The notes below the pieces were generated by a model. That model was not told the origin of the DNA, ran no database searches, and saw only the letters and a program-made list of their open reading frames with translations. Positions 35,286 to 53,123 of a stretch of 64,000 bases of DNA are shown piece after piece. The position numbers and the translations under genes are program-made. The stretch is from Bacteroidales bacterium (GTDB taxonomy: Bacteria; Bacteroidota; Bacteroidia; Bacteroidales; UBA7960): the NCBI GenBank assembly GCA_003557385.1, contig PWON01000204.1, forward strand, positions 6,853-70,852, in the 5' to 3' direction. The first letter of the stretch is position 1. Each line of letters begins with the position of its first letter.

Positions 35286-36002
35286 TTGGAACTGGAGCAG
35301 GATATTTTATACAAAGTTAAGAAAAAGCAGGAAAAGAGACGTTTTCTGGTTAGCCTGGTATATCCTGCCGTTTTTGTGGTTATTCTCTGGATTGTGCATT
35401 TGGCAGAAACATTGTTTGACCTGGGTTTTCACACCTATGGTATTTTTCCGCAAACGCTCTCAGGTCTAAAGGGTATCTTGTTCTCTCCACTGATCCACGG
35501 CAGTTTCTCGCACCTTGCATCCAATTCGTTGCCCATGTTGGTACTGGGAGCGGCACTGTTTTACTTCTACCGCGAAATTGCCCTGCAGGTTAGCATTTAC
35601 GGCTGGCTGATCACCGGTTTGTGGGTCTGGATCGTTGCCAGGCCATCATTTCACATTGGGGCTTCAGGCCTCCTTTACAGCCTGGCAGCCTTTTTGTTTG
35701 TCAGCGGCATCATCCGCCGGCATCCCCGGCTGATGGCCCTGTCATTACTGGTAGCATTCCTTTATGGAGGAATTGTATGGGGTATTTTTCCCATCAGGGA
35801 GCACATTTCGTGGGAATCGCACCTGATGGGTATGTTGTCTGGCATCATACTGGCCCTGTTTTTCAAGAAGCATGGCCCACAGCGGCCACTTTACTCCTGG
35901 GAGCTTGAGGAAAAAAAAGAGGATGAAGAAGGGGGCCCGTCAGAGGAAGAAGACCAGGCTGAGGGCCATGATGGCCATGCCGGCCGTCAGGCCGTAGAGT
36001 GA
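35286..36002 (+). CDS. Rhomboid-family membrane protein (third rhomboid gene in the window)
   Basis: HGSFSHLASN, GASGLLYSL, SHLMGMLSG. TTG start. The acidic tail overlaps the convergent zupT by 63 nt. Confidence 0.72.
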   Translation: MELEQDILYKVKKKQEKRRFLVSLVYPAVFVVILWIVHLAETLFDLGFHTYGIFPQTLSGLKGILFSPLIHGSFSHLASNSLPMLVLGAALFYFYREIALQVSIYGWLITGLWVWIVARPSFHIGASGLLYSLAAFLFVSGIIRRHPRLMALSLLVAFLYGGIVWGIFPIREHISWESHLMGMLSGIILALFFKKHGPQRPLYSWELEEKKEDEEGGPSEEEDQAEGHDGHAGRQAVE

Positions 36003-36764
36003 CAGGTGAGGTTCCCCGTATTCCCTGGCAGCCGGCAACAGGTTATCAATCGAAATAAAAACCATAATGCCGGCCACGGAGGCAAACAAAACACCAAACA
36101 CGGCATCATTCATAAAAGGCATCAGGATAAAGAACCCTACCAGGGCGCCGAGGGGTTCAGCCAGGCCCGACAGGAAACTGTAACAAAAAGCTTTCCGGCG
36201 GCTTCCGGTGGCATGGTGGATGGGAACTGAAATGGCAATACCTTCCGGTATATTGTGGAGGGCAATGGCAATGGCAATGGGTAGGCCAAGCTTCAAATCC
36301 TGAAGTGCCGCCAAAAAGGTGGCGAGGCCTTCCGGAAAATTGTGGATGGTAATGGCAACGGCTGACATTATCCCCATGCGGTATAGCTTTGTATTTTTTT
36401 CCGCTTCCCGGTCCCGGATGCGTTCCACCCTTTTGAGTTCGTGGGGGTTCTCAAATGCCGGGACCAGCCTGTCGATGACGGCAATCAGAACAATGCCCGA
36501 AAAAAAGGCAACCACCGTAATCAGATAACCCACCTGCAACCCCATTTCCTGCCCAAGGATCTCTTTTGCTTTCGGAAAAATCTCTACGAATGAAAGGTAT
36601 ATCATTACCCCGGCAGAAAAACCAAGCGCAATGGATAAGAATTTTGTATTGGTCCGTTTTGCAAAAAAAGCAATGGCGCTGCCAATACCGGTAGACAACC
36701 CCGCAAACAGTGTCAGGCCAAAAGCAATCAATATTTGCTGCGTACTGAAGGTGGAATCAAACAT
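35940..36764 (-). CDS. zupT: ZIP-family zinc/metal transporter ZupT
   Basis: HNFPEGLA and HNIPEGIA motifs, 8 TM helices. Confidence 0.9.
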   Translation of the reverse strand: MFDSTFSTQQILIAFGLTLFAGLSTGIGSAIAFFAKRTNTKFLSIALGFSAGVMIYLSFVEIFPKAKEILGQEMGLQVGYLITVVAFFSGIVLIAVIDRLVPAFENPHELKRVERIRDREAEKNTKLYRMGIMSAVAITIHNFPEGLATFLAALQDLKLGLPIAIAIALHNIPEGIAISVPIHHATGSRRKAFCYSFLSGLAEPLGALVGFFILMPFMNDAVFGVLFASVAGIMVFISIDNLLPAAREYGEPHLSLYGLTAGMAIMALSLVFFL

Positions 36765-36772
36765 ACAAGGCA

Positions 36773-37180
36773 CTAAGAGCGTGTAACAAAATCTTCAAGG
36801 CTTTGTTCCTGAAAATATTTCTTGAACTGTGCGGTTACGTCGCGAACCAGGCCATCCACAAGGCATTTGTCAAAAGGACAAATTTTTCGATCAAGGGGGC
36901 ATTCCGGCAGATCGATCTTGCCTTCAATGGCCTCATAGATCTCCAGGATAGTGATCTGATCAGCCGGTTTACTCAACACAAAGCCTCCGCTGGGGCCCCT
37001 GACAGACTTCAGGAAATTGTGTTTGACCAATTGCTGGAGCACTTTGGCCAGGTGGTTTTTCGAAGCGCCCATTTCCTGTGCTATGCTATTCACATTTATG
37101 TGATTCGTTGTTTTGGCGATCAATACCATGGCATGCAATGCAAGAGATGCAGCCTCCGAGAAATGAACCAGTTTTGCCAT
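36773..37180 (-). CDS. Rrf2-family transcriptional regulator with a candidate Fe-S-binding Cys triad
   Basis: N-terminal wHTH typical of Rrf2 (ASLALHAMVLIA...SKNHLAKVLQQLVKHNFLKSVRGPSGGF). Cys cluster CPLDRKICPFDKC. Confidence 0.88.
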   Translation of the reverse strand: MAKLVHFSEAASLALHAMVLIAKTTNHINVNSIAQEMGASKNHLAKVLQQLVKHNFLKSVRGPSGGFVLSKPADQITILEIYEAIEGKIDLPECPLDRKICPFDKCLVDGLVRDVTAQFKKYFQEQSLEDFVTRS

Positions 37181-37198
37181 AAAAAATAATATAAAGGG

Positions 37199-37450
37199 TT
37201 AAAAAACCATTTTCCGGACCTTCACCCCGTCCAGCGCCCACAATTCATTTTCAAGTCGAATACATTCATCCTGGTTTCCGGTCAGCTCCAGTATGATGAG
37301 TCCGCAACTGCTGCAATCGGGCATGTCGAGGGTATGCAGCCCAAGGCGTGTCCTGATGGAGCACCCGTATTTGGTAAGGATTTCCTGTACCTTCTGAGCG
37401 GCTTCTGTTCTGGACTCGACCAAAACTCCTAATACTCTGATTTCATTCAT
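37199..37450 (-). CDS. Putative iron-only hydrogenase system regulator (TM1266-like, ACT / NikR-C-like), copy 2
   Basis: About 83 aa. Paralog of the adjacent gene (VLGVLVESR...VQEILTKYGCSIRTRLGLH). Adjacent to hydG, as TM1266 is in Thermotoga. Confidence 0.65.
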   Translation of the reverse strand: MNEIRVLGVLVESRTEAAQKVQEILTKYGCSIRTRLGLHTLDMPDCSSCGLIILELTGNQDECIRLENELWALDGVKVRKMVF

Positions 37451-37461
37451 TTCAAGCAAGT

Positions 37462-37728
37462 TTACTTAAACAAATAATCAAATTTCATTTTTTTGATTTC
37501 CACTCCGCCAATCCGGGCCAGGTCTTCTTGCAATTCTTCCCACTGCCCGGGTTTGCCCTGAAGGACGATCAAGATGGTTCCCACACGGCTGCAGATATTG
37601 TCTGACAGTTCATGAAAACCCAGACGGGTTCTGATCACGTCCGCATGTTTGGTAAGCACTTCTTGCGTGCGACCGGCTTCTTTGATCCGGTCAAAAACCA
37701 ATATGCCAAGAATCATGGTTTGTTGCAT
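37462..37728 (-). CDS. Putative iron-only hydrogenase system regulator (TM1266-like), copy 1
   Basis: 88 aa. ILGILVFDR...TQEVLTKHADVIRTRLGFH. Immediately downstream of hydG. Confidence 0.65.
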   Translation of the reverse strand: MQQTMILGILVFDRIKEAGRTQEVLTKHADVIRTRLGFHELSDNICSRVGTILIVLQGKPGQWEELQEDLARIGGVEIKKMKFDYLFK

Positions 37729-37741
37729 AATCTATCATTTT

Positions 37742-39169
37742 TTAAAAATACAAGTCCCTTTTTCCGGATTTGATCTGTCCGATCTTTTCCTTGAGCTTGG
37801 CCACCTTTTGTTCCTGCCCAAGCTCTTTGATTTTGTCGTCAATTAGCCTGTAACCCGCTTTTTTGGTTTCCTCACCGCCATAATCCTCCAGATATTCAGC
37901 CAGTGTAAGCAATGCATTGGGTGTACAATACCTTTTGATAAAGCCCGGTACGGAAAATTCCATAAAGTGTTCGCCGGTGCGACCGAGCCGGTAACAGGCC
38001 GTACAGAAAGACGGGATGTATCCCGATTTGATCAGTTCGTCCATAATCTCGCCCAGTGACCTGTTGTCGTTGATCTGGAACTGGCCCTTGCTTAAATCCT
38101 GCTGATCATGCTTTCCTTTGGAGTAACCGCCCAACTCAAGGTTGGTACCACCATCAATTTGCGAAACCCCGAATCGCAGGATCTGATCACGGATATGAGA
38201 CGGTTCGCGGGCCGTAAGTATCATGCCTGTGTATGGGACCGCCAGGCGAAGAATCGATACCAGCCGCACGAATTCATCGTCTTTGACAAGCCGGCTTTTA
38301 TCAATGTCGAGCGACATGGCATTCTGTATCCTTGGGAAAGAGATTGTGTGCGGACCCACATTGTAAACCGCTTCGAAGTGGTTTACATGCCTCACGAGCC
38401 CCATCACTTCAAAACGCCAATCGTACAACCCGAATAAAGCGCCGATGCCCACATCATCGATACCTGCTTCCTGCGCCCTGTCGAGCGAAGTCAAACGCCA
38501 TTCATAATTTCTTTTGATGCCACCCAGATGAACCTTCTTATAAGTTGGTTCATGATATGTTTCCTGGAAAATCTGGAAAGTCCCGATGCCGGCATCCTTG
38601 ATGGTACGAAATCCCGGGATGTCAAAAGGCGCTGCATTGATGTTTACCCGCCTGATCTCCCCGTTCTTATGCTTAACACCATACACAATTTCAACGGTTT
38701 CGGCTATGAACCCGGCAGAATATTTTGGATGTTCACCATACACCAGGATCAGCCGCTTGTGACCCTGATCGATCAACGCCCTGGTTTCGGCGATCAATTC
38801 CTCACGGCTTAAGGTAATGCGCCTGACCCCTTTGTTGGAAGCACGAAAGCCACAATACTGGCAATTATTGGTACACAAATCACCCACATAAAGCGGAGCA
38901 AACAACACAATGCGTTCGCCATACACTTTTTCCTTGAGCATGCGTGCCCCTTCCTTGATCTCTTCGACCAGTCCGGGGTCTGTGGCATTGATCAGCACTG
39001 CCGTTTCCTCGAGCGAAAGGCGTTTTTTATCAAGCGAAGCCCCAATTACGTCCCGCACCCGTTGCTTATCTGCTTTTGTATTGTTTATAAAATTCCATAT
39101 CTCTCCTGAATCAATAAACGGAGCCATGCGTTTGTCTGCAATGCTGTATTTCTCAGGGTGGTAAATCAT
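37742..39169 (-). CDS. hydG: [FeFe]-hydrogenase H-cluster maturase, radical SAM protein HydG
   Basis: CTNNCQYCGF radical-SAM motif, ThiH-like core, and a C-terminal Cys motif (CTACYRLGRTGEHFMEF...YC) characteristic of HydG. Confidence 0.88.
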   Translation of the reverse strand: MIYHPEKYSIADKRMAPFIDSGEIWNFINNTKADKQRVRDVIGASLDKKRLSLEETAVLINATDPGLVEEIKEGARMLKEKVYGERIVLFAPLYVGDLCTNNCQYCGFRASNKGVRRITLSREELIAETRALIDQGHKRLILVYGEHPKYSAGFIAETVEIVYGVKHKNGEIRRVNINAAPFDIPGFRTIKDAGIGTFQIFQETYHEPTYKKVHLGGIKRNYEWRLTSLDRAQEAGIDDVGIGALFGLYDWRFEVMGLVRHVNHFEAVYNVGPHTISFPRIQNAMSLDIDKSRLVKDDEFVRLVSILRLAVPYTGMILTAREPSHIRDQILRFGVSQIDGGTNLELGGYSKGKHDQQDLSKGQFQINDNRSLGEIMDELIKSGYIPSFCTACYRLGRTGEHFMEFSVPGFIKRYCTPNALLTLAEYLEDYGGEETKKAGYRLIDDKIKELGQEQKVAKLKEKIGQIKSGKRDLYF

Positions 39170-39254
39170 TATAAAAACATTTGCTATTGCCCAAACAAAA
39201 TTAAGCAATATTCAGATAATAAAGTAATTTAAATGCCAGAATACCGGAAAAGAA

Positions 39255-39428
39255 TCACAGGCGAATTTTTAAGCCGTCATAAGCCAGAAGAACATGCTCA
39301 GGAAGATCCCGGCTAACCTCCTTGTGCGTACCAATAAAATGACTCATATGGGTGATATAGGCTTGCTTCGGGTTAACCTCTTTGATCACCTGCAACGCCT
39401 CTTCAAGTGAAAAATGAGAAATGTGTTT
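39255..39428 (-). pseudogene. In-frame 3' continuation of the MBL-fold hydrolase gene beyond an internal TAA
   Basis: The same frame reads KHISHFSLEEALQVIKEVNPKQAYITHMSHFIGTHKEVSRDLPEHVLLAYDGLKIRL*, which is the conserved C-terminus of PhnP-like MBL proteins. Confidence 0.7.
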
Positions 39429-40034
39429 TTATTTTCGGAGCGCATTGATAACCAACACATTGCTGCCTTTTATTTTTTCTTTTTCCTGTTCACTGATATG
39501 GCTGGCATCGGTAATATAGGAAAAATCACCCACCCTGAAACCAAACACCTGCATTTTGTGGTGCTCGACCTCTATGGGCGTAAACAACAAACCGTTAATG
39601 GAAAAAGGATTGTGGTTAATGATATGAAAATGCAATTGCGGGGCGCCGAAAAATCGTTTCTCTTTGAGAATATACGGAAACTCTTTGTTGATACTGTCTA
39701 TAACCGCATCGCTGGCATAAATGTCCACCGTTTTGTTCAATACATAATTGAATGCACGCACATCATCCAGGCCGGCAATATGATCGCGGTGCCCGTGGGT
39801 AAATAATATGGCACCGATGTCCTCTACCTTTTCCCTGATCATCTGGTAACGGAAATCAGGCCCGCAATCAATCACATAATGGGTTCCCTCTACCTCCAGC
39901 ATCACGGAAGTCCTCAGCCTGGAATCGCGCGAGTCATCACTGGTGCAAACACGGCAGTCGCAGGCAACCACGGGTACGCCCGTTGATGTACCGGTGCCGA
40001 GAAAAGTGATGGTCATTGGTTTGTTCAGAGGCAT
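39429..40034 (-). CDS. MBL-fold metallo-hydrolase (PhnP-like), truncated by an in-frame TAA at 39429..39431
   Basis: TFLGTGTSTGVP and HxHxDH (THGHRDH) motifs. The ORF stops about 58 codons before the expected end. Confidence 0.8.
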   Translation of the reverse strand: MPLNKPMTITFLGTGTSTGVPVVACDCRVCTSDDSRDSRLRTSVMLEVEGTHYVIDCGPDFRYQMIREKVEDIGAILFTHGHRDHIAGLDDVRAFNYVLNKTVDIYASDAVIDSINKEFPYILKEKRFFGAPQLHFHIINHNPFSINGLLFTPIEVEHHKMQVFGFRVGDFSYITDASHISEQEKEKIKGSNVLVINALRK

Positions 40035-40060: not shown

Positions 40061-40984
40061 TTAATAGATCAATTCTTCAACCTGCTCCCTGGCTTCTTCC
40101 ATGGCATTCCTGTTGGCCAGGCCATTATTTACGGGATCCCCGTCCCATACACGTTTATAAAAATACAGTGTGCCCAGCTGCACTTCAGGATCAAGATTAT
40201 CATAAAGCAAAATGCTCTCGATCCGGGGTCTGTGGCCGGCACAGTGGGTGACCAGGGTCATCGATTTCATCCAGGTTGCTCCCGACACCAGGTTGGTGGC
40301 ATATATGCCCGGAGGCGGTACAAGCTTTTCTTCGGTATCGGTGGTGCTGCCCACCACCACATGGCTGGATTCCATGCCCTCAGCCAGGGTCCCTATATAC
40401 AAAGTGCCTTTGATGATATACTGGTGGTCCAGGTATGCATTGGCGCGCTGAATATTGCCTTCCGACAAGGCCTTCCTGATCTTGGTGGAACTGACCGTTT
40501 CATTTTCTATCATCTGCAGGGGAATCTCTTCCACTCCAAATCCCATATCGCGGCTCAGGCGATGCAGATAGGAGTAGTCACCTTTCCTGGCATATCCAAA
40601 ATGATGGTTGTGGCCAACAACCACCACTCTGGCGCCCAGGTGCCCAATCAACATGTTGACGGCAAAATCCCGGGATGTCGTCTTCGAAAATTCCAGTGAA
40701 AAGGGGATGATGATCAGGTTTTCCAACCCAGCCTTTTGCAGCAGTTCGATCTTTTCCTCCTGTGAATTGATCATTTTCAGATTTTCCTGATCGGGATACA
40801 ATACCTTGCGGGGATGGGGATAAAAAGTGATGAGCGCAGACTCCCCGTCAATATCCCGGGCAATTTCATTTAACCTGTTAATAATCAGCTTATGTCCGAT
40901 ATGGACCCCATCAAAACTACCGGTGGTGACCACCGCCCTGCTGATTTTCCCTGCAGCCTCGGCTGTATGATAAAATACCCTCAT
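40061..40984 (-). CDS. ribF: Bifunctional riboflavin kinase / FMN adenylyltransferase
   Basis: GSFDGVHIGH nucleotidyltransferase motif and a C-terminal riboflavin kinase domain. 307 aa. Confidence 0.92.
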   Translation of the reverse strand: MRVFYHTAEAAGKISRAVVTTGSFDGVHIGHKLIINRLNEIARDIDGESALITFYPHPRKVLYPDQENLKMINSQEEKIELLQKAGLENLIIIPFSLEFSKTTSRDFAVNMLIGHLGARVVVVGHNHHFGYARKGDYSYLHRLSRDMGFGVEEIPLQMIENETVSSTKIRKALSEGNIQRANAYLDHQYIIKGTLYIGTLAEGMESSHVVVGSTTDTEEKLVPPPGIYATNLVSGATWMKSMTLVTHCAGHRPRIESILLYDNLDPEVQLGTLYFYKRVWDGDPVNNGLANRNAMEEAREQVEELIY

Positions 40985-41610
40985 TTGACCAGATATGCCA
41001 GTTTTTCCAGTGATGTTACAATATCGTATTCTTCCAGGTGTATGCCCTCCGGAACAGTCAGGGGTACCGATGTATAATTCAGTATCCCCCTGATCCCTGC
41101 ATCCAGTAGCATTTTTGCCACATCATGAGTAGCTTCCGGAGATACCGTCAACACGGCAATCTGAATGTTTTCCTTTTTAACAAACTCCTTGATTTGGCTG
41201 ATGTGGTGGCATGGGATGCCGGCCACAATGCGGCCGGTCTTCTGCAAGTCATTATCGAAAGCGGACACAATAGACAGTTTGTCTCTTTTTCCGGAAAAAT
41301 AGCTGGTAATGGCCCTGCCCAGATTACCCATCCCCACCAGGATGATGTCCTGGCCTTTCTCGCTGTCAATGATCTTTCCGATCAGCGCCACCAGGTCCTT
41401 GATCACATACCCCTTGCTCTGGCTTCCTGAGTAGCCGATAAGCATCAGATCCCTGCGAACCTGTACCGGTGTCAGATTCATCATTTTGGCCAGCTCATGT
41501 GAGTATATGTTCGTTTTGCCTTCATGGATGCTGTTGTATAAAATCCGCCTGTATTGACTCAGGCGCTCAATCGTTTTACCCGGTAATTCTAAATAGGTAT
41601 TTTTTGCCAT
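40981..41610 (-). CDS. rex: Redox-sensing transcriptional repressor Rex
   Basis: Winged-helix N-terminus (IERLSQYRRIL...VQVRRDL) and a Rossmann NADH-binding motif, GMGNLG. Confidence 0.9.
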   Translation of the reverse strand: MAKNTYLELPGKTIERLSQYRRILYNSIHEGKTNIYSHELAKMMNLTPVQVRRDLMLIGYSGSQSKGYVIKDLVALIGKIIDSEKGQDIILVGMGNLGRAITSYFSGKRDKLSIVSAFDNDLQKTGRIVAGIPCHHISQIKEFVKKENIQIAVLTVSPEATHDVAKMLLDAGIRGILNYTSVPLTVPEGIHLEEYDIVTSLEKLAYLVK

Positions 41611-41631: not shown

Positions 41632-42759
41632 TTAATCTTCGAGTTTGAATATTATGGTAAAGCAACTTCCCTGATCCGGTGTACTTTCCACTTCAATATT
41701 TGCCTGATACAGGTCTAGCAGCTTTTTAACGATCGACAAGCCCAGCCCGCTGCCGCTGATATGCCTGGTATGTTCACTTTTTATCCGGACAAAATCTTCA
41801 AACAGTTTTTTGGTATCCTCCGGTTTCATCCCGATGCCGGTATCTTCGACGCTCAGCATCAATAGCCCGTTTTCCTTGCGAATGTTCACATCTACCCTTC
41901 CACCCTGTTTGTTGTATTTTATTGCATTGGATACCAGGTTATTCAGTATGATCTCCATCTCCTGGCTGTCGGCCTGCAGGGCGATTTTTTCACTGCAATT
42001 CAGATAAACATCCACGTCTTTCTGAATAGCCAGCGGCTGAAAAGAGTCTATGCATTGCTGGGCAATCTCGCACAGGTGGATCATTTCCAGCTTGCGTTTT
42101 TTCTTGCCGCTTTCAATGCGTGTAAAATCGAGCATGTCCATAATCAGGTTCCGCATTCCCTGTATCCTGTGTAAAGAACGGTCAATGATCTCCCTGTAAT
42201 CGTCCATTTGGTCGCCGAACTTTTTTTTCTGCATCATTTCAAGGTACCCCTCCACGGCATTGATCGGTGCCTTGAGTTCGTGCGACAGCACCGACAAAAA
42301 CTGAAAACGCACCTGACGTCCCTCCACATTCATTTTTTGCGTCATGCGCTGCAGAAAACGCTGTTTTGTAATGGTCTCGATGGATGCACGCAATTCTTTT
42401 GGGGTAAATGGTTTGGGAACAAAATCGTAGGCTCCCTGGCGGGTGGCTTTCACGGCCAGTTCAAGGGATGCATATGAGGTGATCATGACCACCACAAGGT
42501 CCATGTTCTGCTGGTTGATGTATTCCAGCACATCTATCCCTTGTATTCCCGGAAGTTTGTTGTCGAGCAACACAATATCCATGGGTTTTTTCTTGAGGAT
42601 ATCCAGGGCTTCTTCGCCACTTTCAGCGGTTTCTACAATAAACCCGATATCCTCGTCCATAAACGGATAGCTCACAGTATAATTCTCCAGGATCCGGGAA
42701 ACGCCGCTGCGGATACCAGGTTCATCATCAACCACCAGGAGGTTTAAAGTTTCCATCAC
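41632..42759 (-). CDS. Hybrid receiver (REC) - HisKA - HATPase_c sensor kinase, cytoplasmic
   Basis: N-terminal REC (LLVVDDEPGIRSG...VLLDNKLPG), H-box SHELKAPIN, N-box NLVSNAIKYN, G-boxes EDTGIGM and GSGLGLSIV. No TM segments. Confidence 0.85.
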   Translation of the reverse strand: MMETLNLLVVDDEPGIRSGVSRILENYTVSYPFMDEDIGFIVETAESGEEALDILKKKPMDIVLLDNKLPGIQGIDVLEYINQQNMDLVVVMITSYASLELAVKATRQGAYDFVPKPFTPKELRASIETITKQRFLQRMTQKMNVEGRQVRFQFLSVLSHELKAPINAVEGYLEMMQKKKFGDQMDDYREIIDRSLHRIQGMRNLIMDMLDFTRIESGKKKRKLEMIHLCEIAQQCIDSFQPLAIQKDVDVYLNCSEKIALQADSQEMEIILNNLVSNAIKYNKQGGRVDVNIRKENGLLMLSVEDTGIGMKPEDTKKLFEDFVRIKSEHTRHISGSGLGLSIVKKLLDLYQANIEVESTPDQGSCFTIIFKLED

Positions 42760-42760: not shown

Positions 42761-43159
42761 TCAGAGTTTTAGCAATTTATTGATCTCCTTGTGCAACTGG
42801 TCCATCCGGATACCTTTGTCCAGGAATAGATCTGCCTTCACCCAGTCCTGTTCTTCTTCTGTGGTCACATCGAAAAGCATGCCTGTTTCGGCCGTTACGG
42901 CAGAAACGATGATGATGGGCAGATCAGGATACATGCTTTTGATCTTGTGGCAAAGGATGAAGCCAGTGTCCTGGTTTTCCATCATCAGGTCAAGGATGGC
43001 CAGGTCGGGGCGCATGCGCTGGATAATGTCTTCGGCCTCTTTTTGTGTTCCCGCCGATATTGCCTCAAATCCCATATCCTTTACCCCATGCCTGAGTTGA
43101 AACAGATAATCGGCATCATCGTCAACGATCAGAATGGTCTTTTTCTCTTTTTTTAGCAT
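42761..43159 (-). CDS. Stand-alone response-regulator receiver protein
   Basis: ILIVDDDADYL...DLAILDLMM. About 132 aa with no output domain. Confidence 0.85.
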   Translation of the reverse strand: MLKKEKKTILIVDDDADYLFQLRHGVKDMGFEAISAGTQKEAEDIIQRMRPDLAILDLMMENQDTGFILCHKIKSMYPDLPIIIVSAVTAETGMLFDVTTEEEQDWVKADLFLDKGIRMDQLHKEINKLLKL

Positions 43160-45228: not shown

Positions 45229-46950
45229 TTATTTTTTATTGAATTGCCTGCCCAACCAATCCAGGGCTGTGGGGTGATCAGGCAACAGCCGTTTGCCCTT
45301 ATACAGGGATTTGATGGCGGGATTCTCTCCCGGATGTTTAATTGGGTTGGCTTTCCCCATTTCCACGCATATTCTCTTACGCGATCTCACATGCTCAAAC
45401 CCCCGGCTGACAGGTTGTCCTCCACCACCTGCACAGCCATCCAAACAGGCCATCACTTCAATATAATGGATATCCTCCCTTTGTTCGTCCTCCAGGTGTC
45501 TTATGTAATCTTCCGCTTCGGCAATGCTGCTTACCCAGGCAAACCCGATCTCCTTTCCGCCAATGGGCACTTTTATTTCGCGCCGCCCCGACAGATTCTT
45601 GGGCAGGTTGAATTTAAATTGCTCTTTTTTCGGATCGGCCATTATCCGGAACAATTCACGGGCAACCGCTTCGGCCTTGCCGCCCGAATAACCGGCTTGC
45701 CATCCGGCTGATGAACCGGTATCAAAAGGCCTGTCGGGCTGTTCCTCTTCCATTTCGGCAATATCCAGGCCAAACCCTCTCATGAGCTGGAAAAATTCCC
45801 GGACTGTCAACACAGCATCCACATCCGATACCCCTTTGTGGGTGTTTTCTTCCAGGGAGGCTTCGTATTTTTCAGCCACACAGGGCATCACCGCCACCAA
45901 AAAGATCGATTCCGGGTCCATTCCCTCCTGAACTGCATAGCTGGTTTTGACCAAAGTACCCAGGATTTGTTGCGGAGACTTAACTTCTGACAGGTGCACA
46001 AGATTGCCGGGACGGAACGATTGCACATATTTTACCCACGATGGGCAACAGGACGACATCAAAGGAAGGGCGCCACCACCCCTTTCTGCAAGCCTGTCAG
46101 AGAGTATGCGGGCTTCCTCAAGCACATTTACATCGTGGGCGGTACCCAGGTCAAACACCCTGAACGCCCCACATCTTTTCAGGGCCGCGACAATACGGTC
46201 CCTGGCTTTTACTTTCGATTTAAACCCCAGTGTATCCGTTACCGAAGCGACCACAGCAGGACTGATGAAAAATATGACCTGTTTTTTGTCTTTACTCAGT
46301 GCCGCCTGTACTTTTTCCACATGCGAAATGTCCAGCAGGGCAGCCGTAGGGCAAACCTGTATACACTGTCCGCAATGAATGCAACTTGATTCGTTGAGCC
46401 CTTTGTTAAAAGCACTGTTCACCCTGGTCTGATTGCCGCGTGAAATAAAATCAATGGCAGTAACCCGCTGCACCTCCTCACAAATGCGGACACAACGGCT
46501 GCACAGTACGCATTTTGCAGGGTCACGGGCCACACTGGTACTGGAATAATCAGGATACCAGGTATTCTTTTTTCCAAAAAACCTTCGCTCCTTCACATTC
46601 ATTTCTTCGGCCAACCATTGAAGCTCACAGTGTCCGTTGCGCTGGCAATACAGGCAGTCGTCCGGATGATTCGACAATAAGAGTTCCACCAGTGATTTGC
46701 GGGCCTTTATCACACGTGGTGAATTGGTCCTGACCCGCATGCCCTCCTCCACAGGATGGGAACAGGATGTGATCAGGTCGCGCTTGCCAAGGACCTCCAC
46801 AACACACAAACGGCAGGCACCTGTTGGTGAAAAACGGTTCATGTGACAGAGCGTGGGAATCCGGAAGGCATTTCTACGTAAGGCAGACAACAATGTCTCC
46901 CCTTCCTCTACAAGGATTTGTTTATTGTTTATTTCGATCTGGAATTCCAT
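45229..46950 (-). CDS. hydA: [FeFe]-hydrogenase catalytic subunit HydA (multimeric, NADH/ferredoxin-linked type)
   Basis: N-terminal 2Fe-2S and His-ligated 4Fe-4S (HPDDCLYCQRNGHC), and 2x[4Fe-4S]. Canonical H-cluster motifs SSCCPSW, MPCVAEKYE, EVMACLDGCAGGGGQP. Confidence 0.92.
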   Translation of the reverse strand: MEFQIEINNKQILVEEGETLLSALRRNAFRIPTLCHMNRFSPTGACRLCVVEVLGKRDLITSCSHPVEEGMRVRTNSPRVIKARKSLVELLLSNHPDDCLYCQRNGHCELQWLAEEMNVKERRFFGKKNTWYPDYSSTSVARDPAKCVLCSRCVRICEEVQRVTAIDFISRGNQTRVNSAFNKGLNESSCIHCGQCIQVCPTAALLDISHVEKVQAALSKDKKQVIFFISPAVVASVTDTLGFKSKVKARDRIVAALKRCGAFRVFDLGTAHDVNVLEEARILSDRLAERGGGALPLMSSCCPSWVKYVQSFRPGNLVHLSEVKSPQQILGTLVKTSYAVQEGMDPESIFLVAVMPCVAEKYEASLEENTHKGVSDVDAVLTVREFFQLMRGFGLDIAEMEEEQPDRPFDTGSSAGWQAGYSGGKAEAVARELFRIMADPKKEQFKFNLPKNLSGRREIKVPIGGKEIGFAWVSSIAEAEDYIRHLEDEQREDIHYIEVMACLDGCAGGGGQPVSRGFEHVRSRKRICVEMGKANPIKHPGENPAIKSLYKGKRLLPDHPTALDWLGRQFNKK

Positions 46951-46979: not shown

Positions 46980-48929
46980 CTATTTAATGATTACCGCATT
47001 GAATTTGCAAACGTCAAAACAAGTTCCGCAACCGATGCATTTATCCTGCACTATAAAATGCGGGTACCGGGGCGTTCCGATGATGGCGTCGACCGGACAT
47101 TTCTTAAAACAGACCGCGCAGCCCGTGCAAGCATCCACGTTAATTTCATAAACCCTCAGGTCGGTACATACGCCTGCCTCACATTTCCTGTCAAAGATAT
47201 GGGCATCAAATTCGTGCTTAAAATGCTTCAGTGTATTGAGGACAGGATTGGGTGCCGACTTGCCCAGCGAGCATAAGGATGTGTCACTGATCACAGAGGC
47301 CAGGCTTTTCAGTTGCATGACCCCTTTAAAACGTTCCAGCGTTTGAAATGAATTGGTATCGGAAGGCTTGCGGGTAACTTGCTCCATGACTTCCAGCATC
47401 CGTGCTGTCCCCTCCCTGCAGGGAATGCATTTGCCACAACTTTCTTTTTTAAAGAAGGCTGTGAAATAGCGGGCCAGATCCACCATGCAGGTCGCCTGGT
47501 CGAGCACTACAAAAGCACCGCTGCCAAGGGCAGCACCGATGCTTTCCAGGGACTCATAATCCACCCTTGCGTCGAGGTTTTCGGCTGTAATATAGCTGCC
47601 ACTGTTGATGCCCAGAACGATGGCCTTGAATGGCAGTTTGCCCGCCAGGCCGCCACCTGCCCCTTCGATGATTTCCCTGAAAGTGGTCCCCATCAGTACC
47701 TCAACCGTCCCATAATTCTTCAGCCGGCCGGAAAGGGTATATAACTTTGTCCCCTTGCTGCTTTCGGTACCCAGTGAGCGAAACCATTCGGGACCGTTTT
47801 TAACGATCAGGGGAACATTAAACAATGTTTCTACATTGTTCACCACAGTGGGCTTATTCCACAGACCTCTTTCTGCCGGATAGGGCGGTTTCGAGGCAGG
47901 CATGGCCCGTTTGCCCTCAATGCTGTTGTTCAGTGCAGTTTCTTCACCGCAAACAAACGCACGGGCACCTTCTCTGATTACCACATCGATATTCACCCCT
48001 GAATCAAATATATGATGCCCGGTCAAGCCGTATGCACCAGCCTGCCCAATGGTTGCCTGCAAGCGTTTGATGGCCAGACGGAATTCTTTGCGGATAAATA
48101 TATAAGCCTTGTTAGCACCGGTGGCGTATGCTGCGATCAGCACAGCCTCTATCAAACGGTGGGGGTTGCTTTCTATAATGGCACGGTTCATATAACTGCC
48201 CGGATCACTCTCCACGGCATTACACACAAAAAACTTCTGATCACTCACTGTGTTCAGTGCTGCACTCCACTTTTTCCCCGCCGGGAATCCCCCGCCACCC
48301 CGGCCGGCCAAACCACTTTCTTCTATCATCCTGCATACTTCGGCAGGTGTGTGGCGTGCAATGGTGTCGATAAATGCCTGGTAACCGCCCTTCGCGATAT
48401 ATTGTGCAGCTGATACGGGGTCTATGATCCCACAATGTTCCAGCAACATCCTGTGCTGGCCGGAAAAAAATGGATGCGATTCAATGCCAGGCACATCCTC
48501 CCAGGGCTGCAAGATGGTGTCAGTGTACTGACCCAATACAGGCAGGTCGGGCAAATTATCATTCAGAATATCATCCAGCAGCGACTGTACTTTTTCGGCT
48601 GTGACACGCGAAAAAGACAACCTGGCCTTGCCGGGCAGCTGTACATCCACCAGGGGTTCTTCCATGCAAAACCCCACACACCCACCTTCCACCAGGTCGG
48701 CATCAATGTCGTGTTCCTGCAAATATTCCCGGATGGCCTCAAATGTTTTATCCGCACCGGCAATGCGGCCACAGGTAGCCATACCCACATAAATCATAGG
48801 CTTATGAACCCGCTCACCGGCGATGTAAGACAATGATTTTTTTATATCAGTGCGGTCATCCCTCCGGGGGTCTGACAATACCTGTTTGGTAAGGAATTGC
48901 CGGATGTCTTTATCTGGTTCGGGACTCAT
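46980..48929 (-). CDS. hydB: NuoF-like flavoprotein subunit HydB of the multimeric hydrogenase
   Basis: FMN/NADH motifs (GRGGGGFPAGKKW), N3-type cluster ESCGKCIPCREG, and a C-terminal 2x[4Fe-4S] (CTGCAVCFKKCP, CIGCGTCFDVC). Confidence 0.9.
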   Translation of the reverse strand: MSPEPDKDIRQFLTKQVLSDPRRDDRTDIKKSLSYIAGERVHKPMIYVGMATCGRIAGADKTFEAIREYLQEHDIDADLVEGGCVGFCMEEPLVDVQLPGKARLSFSRVTAEKVQSLLDDILNDNLPDLPVLGQYTDTILQPWEDVPGIESHPFFSGQHRMLLEHCGIIDPVSAAQYIAKGGYQAFIDTIARHTPAEVCRMIEESGLAGRGGGGFPAGKKWSAALNTVSDQKFFVCNAVESDPGSYMNRAIIESNPHRLIEAVLIAAYATGANKAYIFIRKEFRLAIKRLQATIGQAGAYGLTGHHIFDSGVNIDVVIREGARAFVCGEETALNNSIEGKRAMPASKPPYPAERGLWNKPTVVNNVETLFNVPLIVKNGPEWFRSLGTESSKGTKLYTLSGRLKNYGTVEVLMGTTFREIIEGAGGGLAGKLPFKAIVLGINSGSYITAENLDARVDYESLESIGAALGSGAFVVLDQATCMVDLARYFTAFFKKESCGKCIPCREGTARMLEVMEQVTRKPSDTNSFQTLERFKGVMQLKSLASVISDTSLCSLGKSAPNPVLNTLKHFKHEFDAHIFDRKCEAGVCTDLRVYEINVDACTGCAVCFKKCPVDAIIGTPRYPHFIVQDKCIGCGTCFDVCKFNAVIIK

Positions 48930-49393
48930 AGGGCAGCACTTTCTTTTTCCCTGAACGAGTGTACAAGGTCTTTCAAGATGTCCAGGGTAATATTTGTATA
49001 AAACGTCTCATTGACCTCAATCAGGGGGGCAAGCCCGCAGGCACCGATACAACTGACCACCTCAAGGCTGAACAGGCCGTTTTTATCGGTTTCGCCATGG
49101 CTAATCTGCAGCAATTTTTCCAGTTCCTTCAAAATTGTTGCCGATCCTGCTACATGACAGGCCGTTCCGTGACAAAGGCGGAAATGGTATTTTCCCAGCG
49201 GCCCGAAGCGAAAATTGTCGTAAAAAGTGGCCACGCCAAAAATCTTGTTTATGCTGATATCCAGATAGTCTCCTACAATATGGATGATCTCCTCCGACAA
49301 AAAACCGTATTCATCCTGAATGGACTGCAGCAGGGAGATCAGGTCTTCACGACGGCGATTGGGGAATTTATTCAGTATGTGCCCTAGCTCCAT
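48926..49393 (-). CDS. hydC: NuoE-like [2Fe-2S] subunit HydC
   Basis: CHGTACHV...VSCIGACGLAP thioredoxin-like 2Fe-2S motif. 4-nt overlap with hydB. Confidence 0.9.
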   Translation of the reverse strand: MELGHILNKFPNRRREDLISLLQSIQDEYGFLSEEIIHIVGDYLDISINKIFGVATFYDNFRFGPLGKYHFRLCHGTACHVAGSATILKELEKLLQISHGETDKNGLFSLEVVSCIGACGLAPLIEVNETFYTNITLDILKDLVHSFREKESAAL

Positions 49394-49500: not shown

Positions 49501-49508
49501 CAAAGATA
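49501..49508 (-). promoter_or_regulatory. Candidate -7 promoter box (TAnnTTTG) for the hydCBA-led gene string
   Basis: The minus strand reads TATCTTTG about 108 nt upstream of the hydC ATG. The Rex-like site sits between this box and the start codon. Confidence 0.3.
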
Positions 49509-49644: not shown

Positions 49645-49652
49645 TATTTTTG
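49645..49652 (+). promoter_or_regulatory. Candidate -7 promoter box (TAnnTTTG) for the ferredoxin-hydS-phosphatase operon
   Basis: TATTTTTG lies 45 nt upstream of the ATG at 49697. Confidence 0.33.
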
Positions 49653-49696: not shown

Positions 49697-49954
49697 ATGG
49701 GCAAGACACAAACCGGTGAAATAGTTATTTGCATGGGCAGCAGTTGCTTTTCCAGGGGAAACAAATACAGCCTTGAACTGATAAAAAAATACCTGAAGGA
49801 AAGGGGGCTGAAAGACACCTTCAGGTTCAAGGGGTCACATTGTTTTGGGGAATGCGAACACGGACCGGTTGTGATTATTGATGGCATCAGGTATACAGAG
49901 GTTCAGCCTGACAAGATCACCGAATTGATGGAGAATCATTTTGCCAACCATTGA
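49697..49954 (+). CDS. Thioredoxin-like [2Fe-2S] ferredoxin (NuoE/HfsA-like)
   Basis: 85 aa with four Cys (CMGSSC...CFGEC). Confidence 0.78.
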   Translation: MGKTQTGEIVICMGSSCFSRGNKYSLELIKKYLKERGLKDTFRFKGSHCFGECEHGPVVIIDGIRYTEVQPDKITELMENHFANH

Positions 49955-49980
49955 ACCGCCTAACCAATCCAAACCAGGGC

Positions 49981-51837
49981 ATGAAAATCATCAAAATAGA
50001 CCATGACCGCTGCACCAGGTCCTATGCCTGCATCAGGGCCTGTCCGGTAAAAGCCATCACCACCAATGGCAGGAACGGCATGCCGGAAGTCAACCATGCA
50101 CGCTGCATTGGCTGTGGCAGTTGTTTAACGGTATGTGCCGCCAGCGCCGTATCCCACTTCAGCGACCTGGAACATACGGCATCGCTCCTTGAATCAAAAC
50201 ATAAGGTGGCGGCCATTGTAGACCCCACCATCAGCGGGGAGTTCCCCGACATTACCGACTACCGGAAGTTCGTCGAAATGATTCGTACACTCGGTTTTGA
50301 TTATGTTAATGAAGTATCGTTCGGGGTGGATCTTGTGGCGAAAAAATACCATGACCTGCTGTCCGATTTTAAGGGCAAATATTACCTGATGTCCGGTTGC
50401 CCGAGCATGGTATCGTATGTGGAAAAATTTTTTCCGGAACTAACCGAAAACCTCTCCCCCATTGTCACCCCGATGACAGCCAGTGCCAAAGTGGTCCGCA
50501 AGGCATTCGGGAAAGAACTGAAAGTGGTTTTCATAGGCCCCTGCCTTTCTGCAAAGCACGAAGCCAAACTGCACAGGGGCACCGGAAAAGTGGATGCGGT
50601 ATTGACCTTTAAAGAGTTGCGCACTTTATTTACCCGTTTCAAGATCAAAGAAGCCAAGGTGGAGTACTCCGATTTTGACAAGCCCATCGGCTATCTCGGC
50701 TCCCTGTTCCCTATCAGCAAGGGCATTGTGTATGCAGCCAGACTGGATGATTCGTTGTTTGACGGGAAGGTGATCACAGTAGAAGGGAAAAACAATATGC
50801 TCGACCTGGTGGATGAATTTAATGAGCAGGCCGAATTCCTGAAAAAACACTTCAATGTGTTCTACCATGGCGGGTGTATCGTAGGGCCGGGTACCACCGA
50901 TACCTCCAATAAGTTCCTGCGACGGACCATGGTGGTAGATTATGTACACAAGCGCCTGAAAGATTTTGACAAGAACCAATGGGAACATGACATGGATGAA
51001 TACCTCGGGCTTGATCTGTCGCGCACTTTCAACAAGGATGACCAGCGTCTGCCCCAGCCTGGCAATGAGCAGATAGAAGAGATTTTAAAGAGCCTGGGCA
51101 AGACCACCGAACTCAATGCCGCCTGTACGGCCTGTGGGTTCAGGAGCTGCCGCGATTTTGCCGCTTCCATTTCCCAGGGGCTATCAAGGCCCGAAATGTG
51201 TCTGAACTACTCCATAAAAAATAAGCAGGATTATATCAGGACACTAAAAAACAACAACGAAAAACTGAAAAAGCAGCAAGAGGGATTGCTTGACAAGGAA
51301 CAATCGCTTCTGGAAGAAAACCAGAAACTAAAACTGCAATCCGACACCATATCCGCCTTGCTAAAAAACCTGCCCTCCGCGGCAGTGATTGTTGACGACA
51401 AACTGAAAGTGATAGAATCCAACGACAGTTTTATCAAAGTGCTGGGCGAAGACGCCGCAATGATCAACGAAGTGATCCCAGGCCTGGTTGGTGCCGATTT
51501 AAAAACCCTGCTACCCTATAACCTCTATAATTTGTTTACCTACGTGCTGGAAAATGACAAGAACATTGTGGGCAAGGATGTGGAACATGACGACCGCCTG
51601 CTCAATGTCAGCATTTATTCGCTGAAACCAAACAAAATCGTTGGCGGGGTGTTCCGCGACATGTATGTGGCAGAGGTGCGCCAGGAGGAGATCATCAACA
51701 GGGTGAATGAGGTCATTGATGAAAACCTGAAAATGGTCCAGCAGATCGCCTTTTCCCTGGGCGAAGGGGCAAGTACGACAGAGAAAATGCTGAATTCCAT
51801 TATTGAGACTTATCGGATGAAGAAGAAGAAGGAATAG
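49981..51837 (+). CDS. hydS: HydS-like sensory [FeFe]-hydrogenase paralog with Cx2Cx4Cx16C motif, coiled coil and C-terminal PAS domain
   Basis: Ferredoxin motifs (CTRSYACIRACP, CIGCGSCLTVC). H-domain motifs SGCPSMV, GPCLSAKHE, YHGGCIVGPG. Then CTACGFRSC(x16)C and a PAS-like C-terminus. Confidence 0.85.
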   Translation: MKIIKIDHDRCTRSYACIRACPVKAITTNGRNGMPEVNHARCIGCGSCLTVCAASAVSHFSDLEHTASLLESKHKVAAIVDPTISGEFPDITDYRKFVEMIRTLGFDYVNEVSFGVDLVAKKYHDLLSDFKGKYYLMSGCPSMVSYVEKFFPELTENLSPIVTPMTASAKVVRKAFGKELKVVFIGPCLSAKHEAKLHRGTGKVDAVLTFKELRTLFTRFKIKEAKVEYSDFDKPIGYLGSLFPISKGIVYAARLDDSLFDGKVITVEGKNNMLDLVDEFNEQAEFLKKHFNVFYHGGCIVGPGTTDTSNKFLRRTMVVDYVHKRLKDFDKNQWEHDMDEYLGLDLSRTFNKDDQRLPQPGNEQIEEILKSLGKTTELNAACTACGFRSCRDFAASISQGLSRPEMCLNYSIKNKQDYIRTLKNNNEKLKKQQEGLLDKEQSLLEENQKLKLQSDTISALLKNLPSAAVIVDDKLKVIESNDSFIKVLGEDAAMINEVIPGLVGADLKTLLPYNLYNLFTYVLENDKNIVGKDVEHDDRLLNVSIYSLKPNKIVGGVFRDMYVAEVRQEEIINRVNEVIDENLKMVQQIAFSLGEGASTTEKMLNSIIETYRMKKKKE

Positions 51838-51851
51838 CAAGTAAGAGGTGA

Positions 51852-51878
51852 TTAGTAGTTAGTAATTAGTATTTAGTA
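51852..51878 (+). repeat. Heptameric micro-repeat (TTAGTAN) x4
   Basis: ttagtag ttagtaa ttagtat ttagtat, in the 101-nt spacer between hydS and the phosphatase gene. Confidence 0.8.
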
Positions 51879-51938
51879 TGAATTTATTACTTGTTGGGCG
51901 TTGGTTACACAGGTGTAAGTTTTTGGTTGAAAAATGGT

Positions 51939-53123
51939 ATGGGTGAGGGTGTTTATATAGAAGTTGGGTCGGCTTTGCGTAATCATGCCGGAGAGCGCAT
52001 TTGCGGCGACATCTTTCTCTCTGAAAGAGTCCGTGAGGAAGGTCGGACCGTGGTGGTGCTGTCAGACGGCATGGGGCACGGGGTCAAAGCCAATCTGCTG
52101 GCTACCCTGACAGCCACCATGGCATTGAACTTTACCAAAGAACACAAGGATGCACACAAGATCGCAGAGATCATCATGAATACCCTGCCCGTTTGCAGCG
52201 AACGCAAGATCAGTTATGCCACCTTTACCATTGTGGATATCGAACAGGAAGGGCAGTGCACGATACTGAACTATGACAATCCCGATGCCATCGTCATGCG
52301 CGGCAAAGAGCCCTATCAGCCCGATTGGCAACATATCACCATAGAAGCGGGTGAATATTCCCGGAAAAAGATCAAAGCCTGCAGTTTCCAGGCCCTTAAG
52401 GAAGACCGTGTGTTGCTGATGACCGACGGCATCACCCAATCGGGTCTTGGTCGTGATCAGTTCTTGCTGGGTTGGGGCGCCGAAGCTGTGGAAAAACACT
52501 TTTTTAACCTGGTAAATGAACAGCCCGACATTTCCGCCTCCAGGCTGGCCTCCCTGGTGGTGAACAAGGCCCATACCAACGACGGGTATCAGGCAAAAGA
52601 CGACACCAGTGCTGCTGTGATCTACTTTAGAGAACCCCGGCGGCTGCTTATCTGTTCGGGTCCGCCGTATGAAAAGAAAAAAGACAAGGAACTGGCACAG
52701 GTGGTGAAAAAATTTAAGGGGAAAAAAATCTTATCGGGTGGCACCACGGCAGAGATTGTTTCAAGGGAACTGGATATCGCCATTGAAGACACCCTGGAGT
52801 TTGACGACCCTGATTTGCCACCCATTTCTTACATGAAAGGGATTGACCTGGTTACGGAAGGCATCCTGACCCTGAGTAAAACAGCAGAGATCCTGGATAA
52901 ATACAGCACCCGTACCGAATTGGAAAAAGGGCCGGCAGACCTTATTGTAAGGCAATTGCTGGAAAGTGATGAGATCCACTTGCTGGCAGGAACAGCCATC
53001 AATGTTGCCCACCAGGATCCAAACCTGCCGGTAGAACTTGAGATTCGCCGGTCGGTGATGAAAAAGATTGCACGTATCCTGGAGGATAAGTTTTTGAAAG
53101 AAGTGAGTTTACGGTATATATGA
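51939..53123 (+). CDS. SpoIIE/PP2C-family serine phosphatase with an uncharacterised C-terminal domain of about 170 aa
   Basis: ICGDIF...VLSDGMGHGVKA and MTDGITQSG motifs typical of SpoIIE-type PP2C. Confidence 0.8.
   Translation: MGEGVYIEVGSALRNHAGERICGDIFLSERVREEGRTVVVLSDGMGHGVKANLLATLTATMALNFTKEHKDAHKIAEIIMNTLPVCSERKISYATFTIVDIEQEGQCTILNYDNPDAIVMRGKEPYQPDWQHITIEAGEYSRKKIKACSFQALKEDRVLLMTDGITQSGLGRDQFLLGWGAEAVEKHFFNLVNEQPDISASRLASLVVNKAHTNDGYQAKDDTSAAVIYFREPRRLLICSGPPYEKKKDKELAQVVKKFKGKKILSGGTTAEIVSRELDIAIEDTLEFDDPDLPPISYMKGIDLVTEGILTLSKTAEILDKYSTRTELEKGPADLIVRQLLESDEIHLLAGTAINVAHQDPNLPVELEIRRSVMKKIARILEDKFLKEVSLRYI

Follow-up and report, generated by a model that had tools for sequence, protein, structure and literature searches.

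A Bacteroidales form of a conserved [FeFe]-hydrogenase cassette with a kinase-fused putative H2 sensor, Rex and a degenerate PAS-type paralogue

It is still an open question by what means fermenting anaerobes perceive H2 and adjust their bifurcating hydrogenases to it, and reviews call the 'sensory' class of [FeFe] hydrogenases putative. The closest described system, defined in 2024 as sub-type V BfuABC-T (PMC11406978), combines bfuABC with a 'bfuT' gene that lies downstream of bfuA and encodes a fused kinase. There, the account of BfuABC-T is built on genome annotation and predicted structures only, the kinase-domain and PAS forms of BfuT (sub-types IV and V) are both typed as C3 by HydDB and not as C1, and a second bfuT is reported upstream of bfuC in Perlabentimonas gracilis, Tenuifilum thalassicum and Williamwhitmania taraxaci, with implications that are called 'unclear'. 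Here we analyzed a 64,000-nucleotide stretch of contig PWON01000204.1 from a Bacteroidales bacterium (assembly GCA_003557385.1), hereafter the window, which carries an [FeFe]-hydrogenase locus of this kind. As in sub-types IV and V, found in Hydrogenedentota, Calditrichota and three Bacteroidota, an A3-type hydABC is followed by a kinase-fused group C paralogue and, as in the Bacteroidota loci with two bfuT genes, a second, PAS-type paralogue lies upstream of the first gene. An earlier note on this DNA, made from the sequence alone, had put the wiring forward as a good candidate for undescribed regulation. However, the locus is a member of a known, common cassette, and the two-sensor layout was already on record from the three Bacteroidota. 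Term searches of PMC11406978 found neither 'Rex' nor 'response regulator', and brought up nothing on the pair of REC and REC-histidine kinase, on a PP2C partner or on H-cluster ligands missing from the PAS paralogue. Three features seem to be undescribed, namely the derived loss of H-cluster ligands by the PAS paralogue, the variability at Lys358 of the accompanying HydA, and the link between Rex operators and rex. The locus shows Rex operators that track rex in the cassette and a PAS-type paralogue that has degenerated in one clade, and not a new kind of system.

Only two sensory members have been characterized biochemically, TmHydS of group C and TamHydS of group D (PMC8163306, PMC10055695). 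TmHydS from Thermotoga maritima (group C, or M2f; PMC10055695, Chongdar 2018 cited therein) resembles the paralogues studied here in its two N-terminal [4Fe-4S] motifs, its hydrogenase domain (H-domain) without the relay Cys and its Met353 to Gly change. It also continues into a C-terminal four-Cys cluster and then a PAS domain, and is encoded beside a bifurcating hydrogenase, as here. In TmHydS every ligating cysteine is retained, as are the hydrogen-bonding partners of CN and CO, whereas the PAS paralogue of the window has not kept them all, and the other paralogue of the window has a kinase in place of the PAS domain. The order small protein, HydS-PAS protein and Ser/Thr phosphatase is shared with hfsABCD of Thermoanaerobacterium and with the HydS cluster of Ruminococcus albus (PMC5707799, PMC11837493; Zheng 2014 cited therein). 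Deletion of hfsB in Thermoanaerobacterium affected the expression of adhE and rex, which is genetic evidence for a PAS hydrogenase as a regulator (PMC5707799, PMC11837493), and a link to Rex is common to these systems and the window. However, hfsD encodes a ferredoxin-linked hydrogenase in the same operon, unlike the situation here, the hfs/HydS systems occur in Firmicutes and not in Bacteroidota, and our 85-aa protein is likened to HfsA by gene order only.

The same logic, in which a low-activity hydrogenase serves as H2 sensor together with a kinase that controls hydrogenase genes, is found in the [NiFe] system HoxBC-HoxJ-HoxA of Ralstonia and Cupriavidus (PMC5707799). There, in contrast, the metal centre and the protein family are unrelated, sensor and kinase are separate proteins, and a DNA-binding HoxA is present, of which no counterpart was found here. 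Rex regulons with hydrogenase and hydG genes, for example in Caldicellulosiruptor bescii (PMC6391272), share with this family of cassettes a rex gene and an inverted-repeat operator before the hydrogenase genes. Unlike in those regulons, rex lies inside the cassette here, the Bacteroidota operators are of the TTGTTAA-N4-TTAACAA type, and the site in the window is degenerate.

We read the locus as a Bacteroidales form of a conserved hydrogenase-plus-regulators cassette with a kinase-fused H2 sensor, Rex and a degenerate PAS module, and we put the probability of this reading as a whole at roughly 55%. The map of open reading frames (ORFs) and their translations placed 14 ORFs on the minus strand, from the hydC start at 49393 to the end of the ZIP gene at 35940, in the order hydC, hydB, hydA, the fusion of an H-domain with HisKA-HATPase, a receiver (REC), a REC-kinase, rex, a ribF-like gene, an MBL gene, hydG, two TM1266-like genes, rrf2 and the ZIP gene. 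The trio on the plus strand occupies 49697-53123. Both sets lie where the earlier note had placed them, and Pfam and NCBIfam scans recovered the domain content it had given for all 14 + 3 genes, with the PAS domain as the exception. The AT-rich spacer between hydC and the small ferredoxin-like gene likewise proved to be 303 nt long (28.7% GC). Gene starts were taken from calls on near-identical contigs; the window, which derives from the metagenome-assembled genome of a soda-lake Bacteroidales member, is 99.96% identical to a contig from Kulunda soda-lake sediment and to two Bacteroidales contigs from metagenome-assembled genomes, and its homologues carry the label Bacteroidales. With these starts and an intact 259-aa MBL protein, the intergenic gaps fall between -4 and 85 nt as had been stated, but this does not hold in the window itself, where the MBL frame contains a stop.

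In order to see how far this arrangement is conserved, we scanned species-representative genomes and obtained 80 loci with kinase-fused homologues (47-77% identity), whose ORFs were compared with the 17 proteins of the window. Synteny was counted only in loci with enough flanking sequence. In 66 of 77 loci the kinase fusion comes immediately after hydA, and in 56 of 67 it is preceded by the whole of hydCBA, with hydC opening the cassette. A receiver-kinase follows downstream in 70/73 loci, and a single receiver is a neighbour of the fusion in 65/73. By their record titles these loci come from at least eight phyla, among them Bacteroidota, Planctomycetota, Myxococcota, Hydrogenedentota, Acidobacteriota, Verrucomicrobiota, Thermoleophilia and Melainabacteria. 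In Bacteroidota, rex and ribF follow the relay genes, often together with MBL, hydG and TM1266-like genes, and rex and ribF are adjacent in most loci; in other phyla rex stands upstream of hydC. The divergent trio of ferredoxin, PAS hydrogenase and PP2C has an upstream position in 22 Bacteroidota loci, while in one (L051) it lies downstream, and PP2C follows the PAS protein in 21 loci. ribD, which lies beside the PP2C gene here, was considered as a further member of the trio and rejected, as it is not conserved in other loci.

These results show that the locus is a functional unit and not a chance neighbourhood, and the absence from relatives that would have spoken for chance was not seen. That signalling genes unrelated to the hydrogenase operon came to lie beside it by accident is very improbable: ribD and the pair rrf2-zupT are indeed not conserved neighbours, but for the core and the trio the idea is refuted by a core order that recurs in 80 loci across phyla and by the trio in the 22 Bacteroidota loci. 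The kinase-fused sensor with its REC and REC-kinase is an ancient, phylum-spanning module tied to HydABC. In a separate set of Bacteroidota cassettes (L010, L012, L019, L020, L024, L034, L037, L042, L053, L056) we found neither rex nor the trio, and an extra receiver lies directly upstream of hydC; L010 also has a LuxR-type regulator, and Rex-like boxes precede the extra receiver in L019, L024 and L037.

The kinase fusion consists of two [4Fe-4S] motifs, the H-domain, a Cx2Cx4Cx16C cluster motif (here CGACGYDTC-x16-C), HisKA and HATPase_c, and has at least 8000 homologues in the database. In CpI numbering it retains Ala230-Pro231-Ser232, Cys300, Cys355, Lys358, Glu361 and the L3 cysteines, that is, all residues that bind the H-cluster, and these are kept in 98-99 of 99 relatives at each tabulated position (the L3 cysteines by motif counts). 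Its substitutions are Cys299 to Ser, Met353 to Gly and Glu279 to Tyr. The proton-relay Cys is thus missing, as the earlier note had said of both paralogues; in the PAS protein the same position is Gly. In sensory HydS proteins the cysteine ligands and the hydrogen-bonding residues around the [2Fe] site are conserved (PMC10055695), a rule that the kinase fusion keeps and the PAS-type protein of this clade breaks. Over the H-domain the two paralogues share 41% identity, compared with about 25% between them and HydA. In a neighbour-joining tree of 100 kinase-fused, 51 PAS-type and 59 HydA sequences plus a CpI fragment, with no group B or D references, each paralogue type was monophyletic and the two were sisters, apart from HydA and CpI. 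Both have the Met353 to Gly change of TmHydS, and both carry the C-terminal four-Cys motif that has been described for groups C and D (PMC8163306). The two had been classed beforehand as putative H2 sensors of group C; their position outside group A and their sensory-type active sites agree with this, but the PAS protein lacks conserved H-cluster ligands. HydDB divides group C into kinase-linked C1, chemotactic C2 and phosphatase-linked C3, all putative (PMC5037454). The label C1 was not adopted for the kinase fusion because PMC11406978 types kinase-fused BfuT as C3. At codon 173 of the kinase fusion (44700-44701) the window encodes Lys (AAA) and four contigs of the same population encode Arg (AGG), a difference of two bases.

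With its H-cluster residues kept and its relay lost, the kinase fusion would probably bind H2 or turn it over slowly. A resulting redox change could pass through the C-terminal Cx2Cx4Cx16C cluster to the adjoining kinase and so determine how far the receiver and the receiver-kinase are phosphorylated. In the fusion the H, N, G1, F and G2 boxes are legible, and the catalytic motifs are complete in both kinases (His; N, G1, F and G2 boxes) and in both receivers (Asp pocket, Thr/Ser, Lys). Beyond these relay genes, no further REC, histidine kinase or DNA-binding regulator was found within the 64-kb window. The final target of the relay is not encoded in the window; it could be an orphan regulator, or else HydABC itself. 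Single-domain receivers often work through protein binding. This habit, together with the lack of a DNA-binding output in cassette or window, fits another explanation, in which the kinase fusion is mainly a fourth subunit of the enzyme that taps electrons from HydABC and tunes activity or assembly post-translationally, by phosphorylation or receiver binding and not through transcription. The fusion almost always follows hydA directly, here with a gap of 10 nt, and PMC11406978 treats it as subunit T. We nevertheless consider this explanation quite unlikely, as there is no evidence that a complex forms, five loci (L058, L063, L073, L079, L082) have the kinase fusion without hydABC nearby, and LuxR- or OmpR-type regulators or extra receivers lie near the cassette in some relatives.

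The PAS-type paralogue differs from the kinase-fused sensor in its H-domain. It starts with degenerate motifs for two [4Fe-4S] clusters and continues into the H-domain, the Cx2Cx4Cx16C motif (CTACGFRSC-x16-C), a coiled coil and a PAS fold. Cys499 of CpI aligns to Tyr305, followed by His306, so that one of the four H-cluster cysteines is missing. Further substitutions are Cys299 to Gly, Met353 to Gly, Lys358 to Ala, Ala230 to Asp and Glu279 to Tyr. This is a property of the clade, since among the 120 closest homologues the H-cluster Cys is missing in 119, with His, Asp, Asn or Ser in its place, and Lys358 is missing in all 120. The first ferredoxin motif, at about residues 21-31 of the ORF, reads CxxSxxCxxxCP, and at least 90% of 32 aligned homologues share its Ser in place of the second Cys. 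A Cys in L3 is retained by more distant PAS-type orthologues (44-52% identity), which branch basally, so that the loss of the H-cluster Cys is derived within the PAS-type clade. The PAS domain itself stood by its predicted fold and failed by Pfam: PAS_8 gave an insignificant E-value of 0.02 on the C-terminal fragment, and a precomputed PAS match is lacking in all 120 of the closest homologues. As Foldseek on a full-length AlphaFold model returned only hydrogenases, the C-terminal 214 aa were modelled alone. This model (pLDDT 71.5) shows a long helix and then a unit of two strands, helices and three strands, and its top 50 Foldseek matches in the PDB were all PAS or LOV domains (E about 2e-5, TM up to 0.74).

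Together with its neighbours, the PAS paralogue may form an hfsABC-like module. The small protein covers the C-terminal half of the NuoE fold (PF01257 E 6e-10, profile positions 67-143), and the metal-binding motifs SDGMGHG, TDG and KDD are legible in the PP2C phosphatase. No partner kinase or STAS protein for the phosphatase is present here. Its C-terminal approximately 165 aa gave no Pfam match even at E<=5; the length of this part is conserved among the trio phosphatases of other loci, and it may hold the key to the target. Without the H-cluster Cys and Lys358, the earlier idea of an H2 signal passing via the phosphatase branch becomes doubtful, and so does the PAS paralogue of this clade as an H2 sensor. 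Having also lost a ferredoxin-motif Cys, the protein would more likely be an Fe-S or ferredoxin redox reporter, or a pseudo-enzyme scaffold. A more definite form of this proposal, which we hold tentatively as one possibility, is that the PAS paralogue is a pseudo-hydrogenase without H-cluster which, with its 2Fe-2S partner, reports the redox state of ferredoxin or Fe-S centres to PP2C, and that the kinase fusion is the sole true H2 sensor. If so, separate read-outs for H2 (kinase relay), ferredoxin (PAS/PP2C) and NADH (Rex) would govern one bifurcating hydrogenase.

It has also to be considered that both paralogues are genuine H2 sensors with kinase and phosphatase outputs, giving two H2 inputs, for example with different thresholds, in addition to Rex. 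Both proteins have an H-domain without relay Cys and the C-terminal cluster motif of groups C and D, the distant PAS-type orthologues retain their L3 Cys, His and Asp are able to ligate [4Fe-4S] clusters, and HfsB and RaHydS are regarded as putative sensors. This is unlikely in view of the variable substitutes at the lost Cys, the complete absence of Lys358 among the closest homologues, the Asp at position 230, the derived nature of the loss, and the conservation of ligating and hydrogen-bonding residues in HydS (PMC10055695). The cultured relatives Perlabentimonas, Tenuifilum and Williamwhitmania would offer a route to tell H2 sensing from redox sensing; Perlabentimonas gracilis is a soda-lake isolate.

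Rex would provide the NADH-dependent input of the cassette. The described Rex operator is TTGTGAAW4TTCACAA (PMC2883068). A search of the window with TTGTGAA-N4-TTCACAA gave only a match with three mismatches in the hydC leader, which is not above chance for the window. The same leader holds the candidate operator TTGTGAATTGAATATCAA, with two mismatches to TTGTKAANNNNTTMACAA; its position, its left half-site and the block ATATTGTGAA...CAAC are common to the window and the loci L005 and L006. In relatives, boxes of the TTGTTAA-N4-TTAACAA type occupy the same spacer, and from these we derived the degenerate pattern TTGTKAA-N4-TTMACAA. With one mismatch at most, this pattern matched 33 sites in the loci (1.43 Mb in total), and in about 20 cases the site immediately precedes hydC, or rex in cassettes that begin with rex. 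Of 42 loci with rex, 20 have such a box no further than 300 nt from their first gene (shuffle mean 0.03), and of 17 loci without rex none does. This co-occurrence of operator and rex backs the Rex input that had been proposed earlier. Judged from these counts, Rex control of the cassette is well supported across the family, and in this genome it is plausible. Rex would bind the operator in the hydC leader and repress the operon, including rex itself, until NADH/NAD+ rises.

As regards the enzyme, the three subunits were confirmed to have the bifurcating architecture that the earlier note had seen in them. The closest solved relatives of HydA are the catalytic subunits of the bifurcating HydABC enzymes of T. 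kivui, A. woodii and T. maritima (E 6e-127 to 5e-109), with T. kivui HydA1 (8a6t_A) as the best PDB match at E 6e-127. HydB aligns over almost its full length to bifurcating B subunits (7t2r_B, E 3e-171; 7q4v_B, 8a6t_B, 7p5h_B), including the C-terminal two-cluster domain, whose clusters B3 and B4 are named as required for bifurcation in PMC11406978. By these alignments HydABC is a bifurcating-type (Bfu), NADH-linked [FeFe] hydrogenase. The best NCBIfam model of HydA, FeFe_hydrog_A6, scored 561 bits and so remained below its cutoff of 765. The L1 motif SSCCPSW is canonical, with relay Cys299 and ligand Cys300 present, and L3 (EVMACLDGCAGGGGQP) is also canonical, fitting ExMxCxxGCxxGGGxP. L2, in contrast, reads MPCVAEKYE instead of MPCxxKxxE ('vmpcvaekyea' aligned to 'vmpcigkkfea' of 8a6t_A), so that Lys358 of CpI is replaced by Glu at codon 360, with Cys355, Met353 and Glu361 kept. 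Lys358 of CpI contacts the distal CN ligand of the H-cluster (PMC10147833). Of the 120 closest HydA homologues, about 68 have K here, about 29 have N and 2 have E, and K358E is common only to the window and an 85%-identical relative, P0242. A literature search for natural K358 variants gave nothing useful beyond one mention of the role of the residue.

Other deviations were observed in the HydA proteins of related cassettes. In non-Bacteroidota cassettes (L013, L018, L025, L033, L036, L040, L044, L048 and others) L1 reads TSCSPG, apparently with Ser for the ligand Cys300. The motifs SACPA and TPCxAMKFE, equivalent to C299A, M353T and K358M, are found in a Bacteroidales clade (L017, L028, L035, L046 and others). 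To judge by these motifs, the 'catalytic' HydA partner in this type of cassette is often itself non-canonical.

At least three stacked inputs had been proposed for this one enzyme. H2 via the kinase fusion and NADH via Rex are plausible, whereas the phosphatase branch probably carries no H2 input in this clade. Several points weigh against our reading of the locus. What the relay acts on is a guess, as the 64 kb contain no response regulator that binds DNA. A literature search found no biochemical study or experiment on a kinase-fused HydS, which bears out the statement of the earlier note that the kinase-linked class lacks biochemical characterization. The Rex box of the window is degenerate, with two to three mismatches, and matches of this quality are no scarcer in the window than expected by chance. 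The Glu at the CN-binding Lys of HydA means that the label 'catalytic' carries a caveat. For the PAS paralogue, the varying His, Asp or Asn at the lost Cys fits an alternative ligand as well as loss of the cluster, and its full-length AlphaFold model is poor around L3 (pLDDT <50). Finally, the RNA evidence comes from one alkali-sediment metatranscriptome in the form of low-depth assembled contigs, not stranded reads, in which DNA carry-over is possible.

Table 1. Features of the hydrogenase locus, with positions in the window
Feature	Position	Strand	Description
zupT, ZIP family	35940-36764	-	PF02535
rrf2	36773-37180	-	PF02082
Two TM1266-like / CPF_0552-family small proteins	37462-37728, 37199-37450	-	PF21699; NF052672 78 and 101 bits (cutoff 85)
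hydG	37742..39169	-	H-cluster radical-SAM maturase, 475 aa from called start; TIGR03955 496 bits (cutoff 312)
-7 box TAATTTTG	39196..39203	-	26 nt upstream of hydG ATG
MBL-fold hydrolase	39255..40034	-	PF12706; 259 aa on L001-L003
ribF-like	40061..40984	-	FAD-synthetase domain only; PF06574 E 1e-44
rex	40981..41610	-	NADH/NAD+-sensing repressor, 209 aa; NF003995 206 bits (cutoff 126); Put_DNA-bind_N and CoA_binding
REC-HisKA-HATPase_c hybrid	41632..42756	-	374 aa; PF00072, PF00512, PF02518
Single-domain receiver	42761..43159	-	132 aa from called start (near-identical contig); PF00072 E 1e-15
HydS-type sensor::histidine kinase	43170..45218	-	682 aa; PF02906, PF04060, PF00512, PF02518
hydA	45229..46950	-	Group A [FeFe] hydrogenase catalytic subunit, 573 aa; PF02906 E 2e-62
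hydB	46980..48929	-	NuoF-like FMN/NADH subunit with C-terminal 2x[4Fe-4S], 649 aa; Complex1_51K, NADH_4Fe-4S, Fer4
hydC	48926..49393	-	NuoE-like thioredoxin-like [2Fe-2S] subunit, 155 aa; PF01257 E 4e-44
Candidate Rex operator TTGTGAATTGAATATCAA	49411..49428	-	hydC leader, 18-35 nt upstream of hydC ATG
-7 box TATCTTTG	49501..49508	-	107 nt upstream of hydC
-7 box TATTTTTG	49645..49652	+	44 nt upstream of small ferredoxin-like gene
Small thioredoxin-like [2Fe-2S] protein	49697..49954	+	85 aa; 4-nt overlap with next gene
Hydrogenase-like PAS protein	49981..51837	+	618 aa from called start; PF02906, PF04060
PP2C/SpoIIE-type Ser/Thr phosphatase	51939..53123	+	394 aa from called start; PF07228 E 4e-17

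As to transcription, Bacteroidota-type -7 boxes (TAnnTTTG; background 0.36 per kb per strand) were found upstream of hydC, of hydG and of the small ferredoxin-like gene (Table 1). A scan for sigma-70 promoters and intrinsic terminators gave counts not clearly above those of shuffles, with all terminator-like sites intragenic, and is uninformative for Bacteroidota. In the metatranscriptome, one contig (49070-49478) covers hydC and its leader including the Rex box, and ends just downstream of the -7 box of hydC. Further contigs span the junctions of hydG with TM1266 (37580-37892) and of the ferredoxin-like gene with the PAS hydrogenase (49759-50001), contigs also lie on hydB and the PAS protein, and binned RNA depth extends over most of the PP2C gene (51984-52617). 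Contig depth was about 9 on hydG, the highest of the region, versus 0.2-0.9 on ribF and MBL. No RNA signal appeared in this data set on rrf2, most of zupT or ribD, and the interval 36134-37401 had no contigs. We have thus weak evidence for at least three transcription units rather than one 14-gene operon. That all 14 genes form one unit is unlikely, given the separate -7 box and different RNA depth of hydG and the occurrence of rrf2-zupT in the nearest relative only and without RNA contigs, and the maturase and metal genes are not demonstrably in the same unit. hydG appears to have its own promoter, and with the two TM1266-like genes it may form a separate downstream maturation unit. No homologues of hydE or hydF were found in the 64-kb window, though hydG is present; these remaining maturases must be located elsewhere in the genome.

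Among the remaining genes, rrf2-zupT follows the cassette only in the closest full locus (L006), and the two are probably neighbours and not part of the system. The ribF-like protein has no flavokinase domain in its C-terminal 137 aa, which gave no Pfam match at E<=5, and all NCBIfam RibF models scored below cutoff; in most Bacteroidota cassettes its gene comes after rex, which suggests a flavin-related function connected with HydB, the subunit that contains FMN. The MBL frame of the window is interrupted by a TAA at codon 202 (39429-39431, with T at 39430), leaving an ORF of 201 aa that ends 220 nt before the longest hydG ORF. In three near-identical contigs codon 202 is TCA (Ser), and G stands at 39430 in two DNA runs. 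A sequencing error was considered and rejected, as the same T allele is present in a metatranscriptome contig, so that the stop is a natural nonsense polymorphism.

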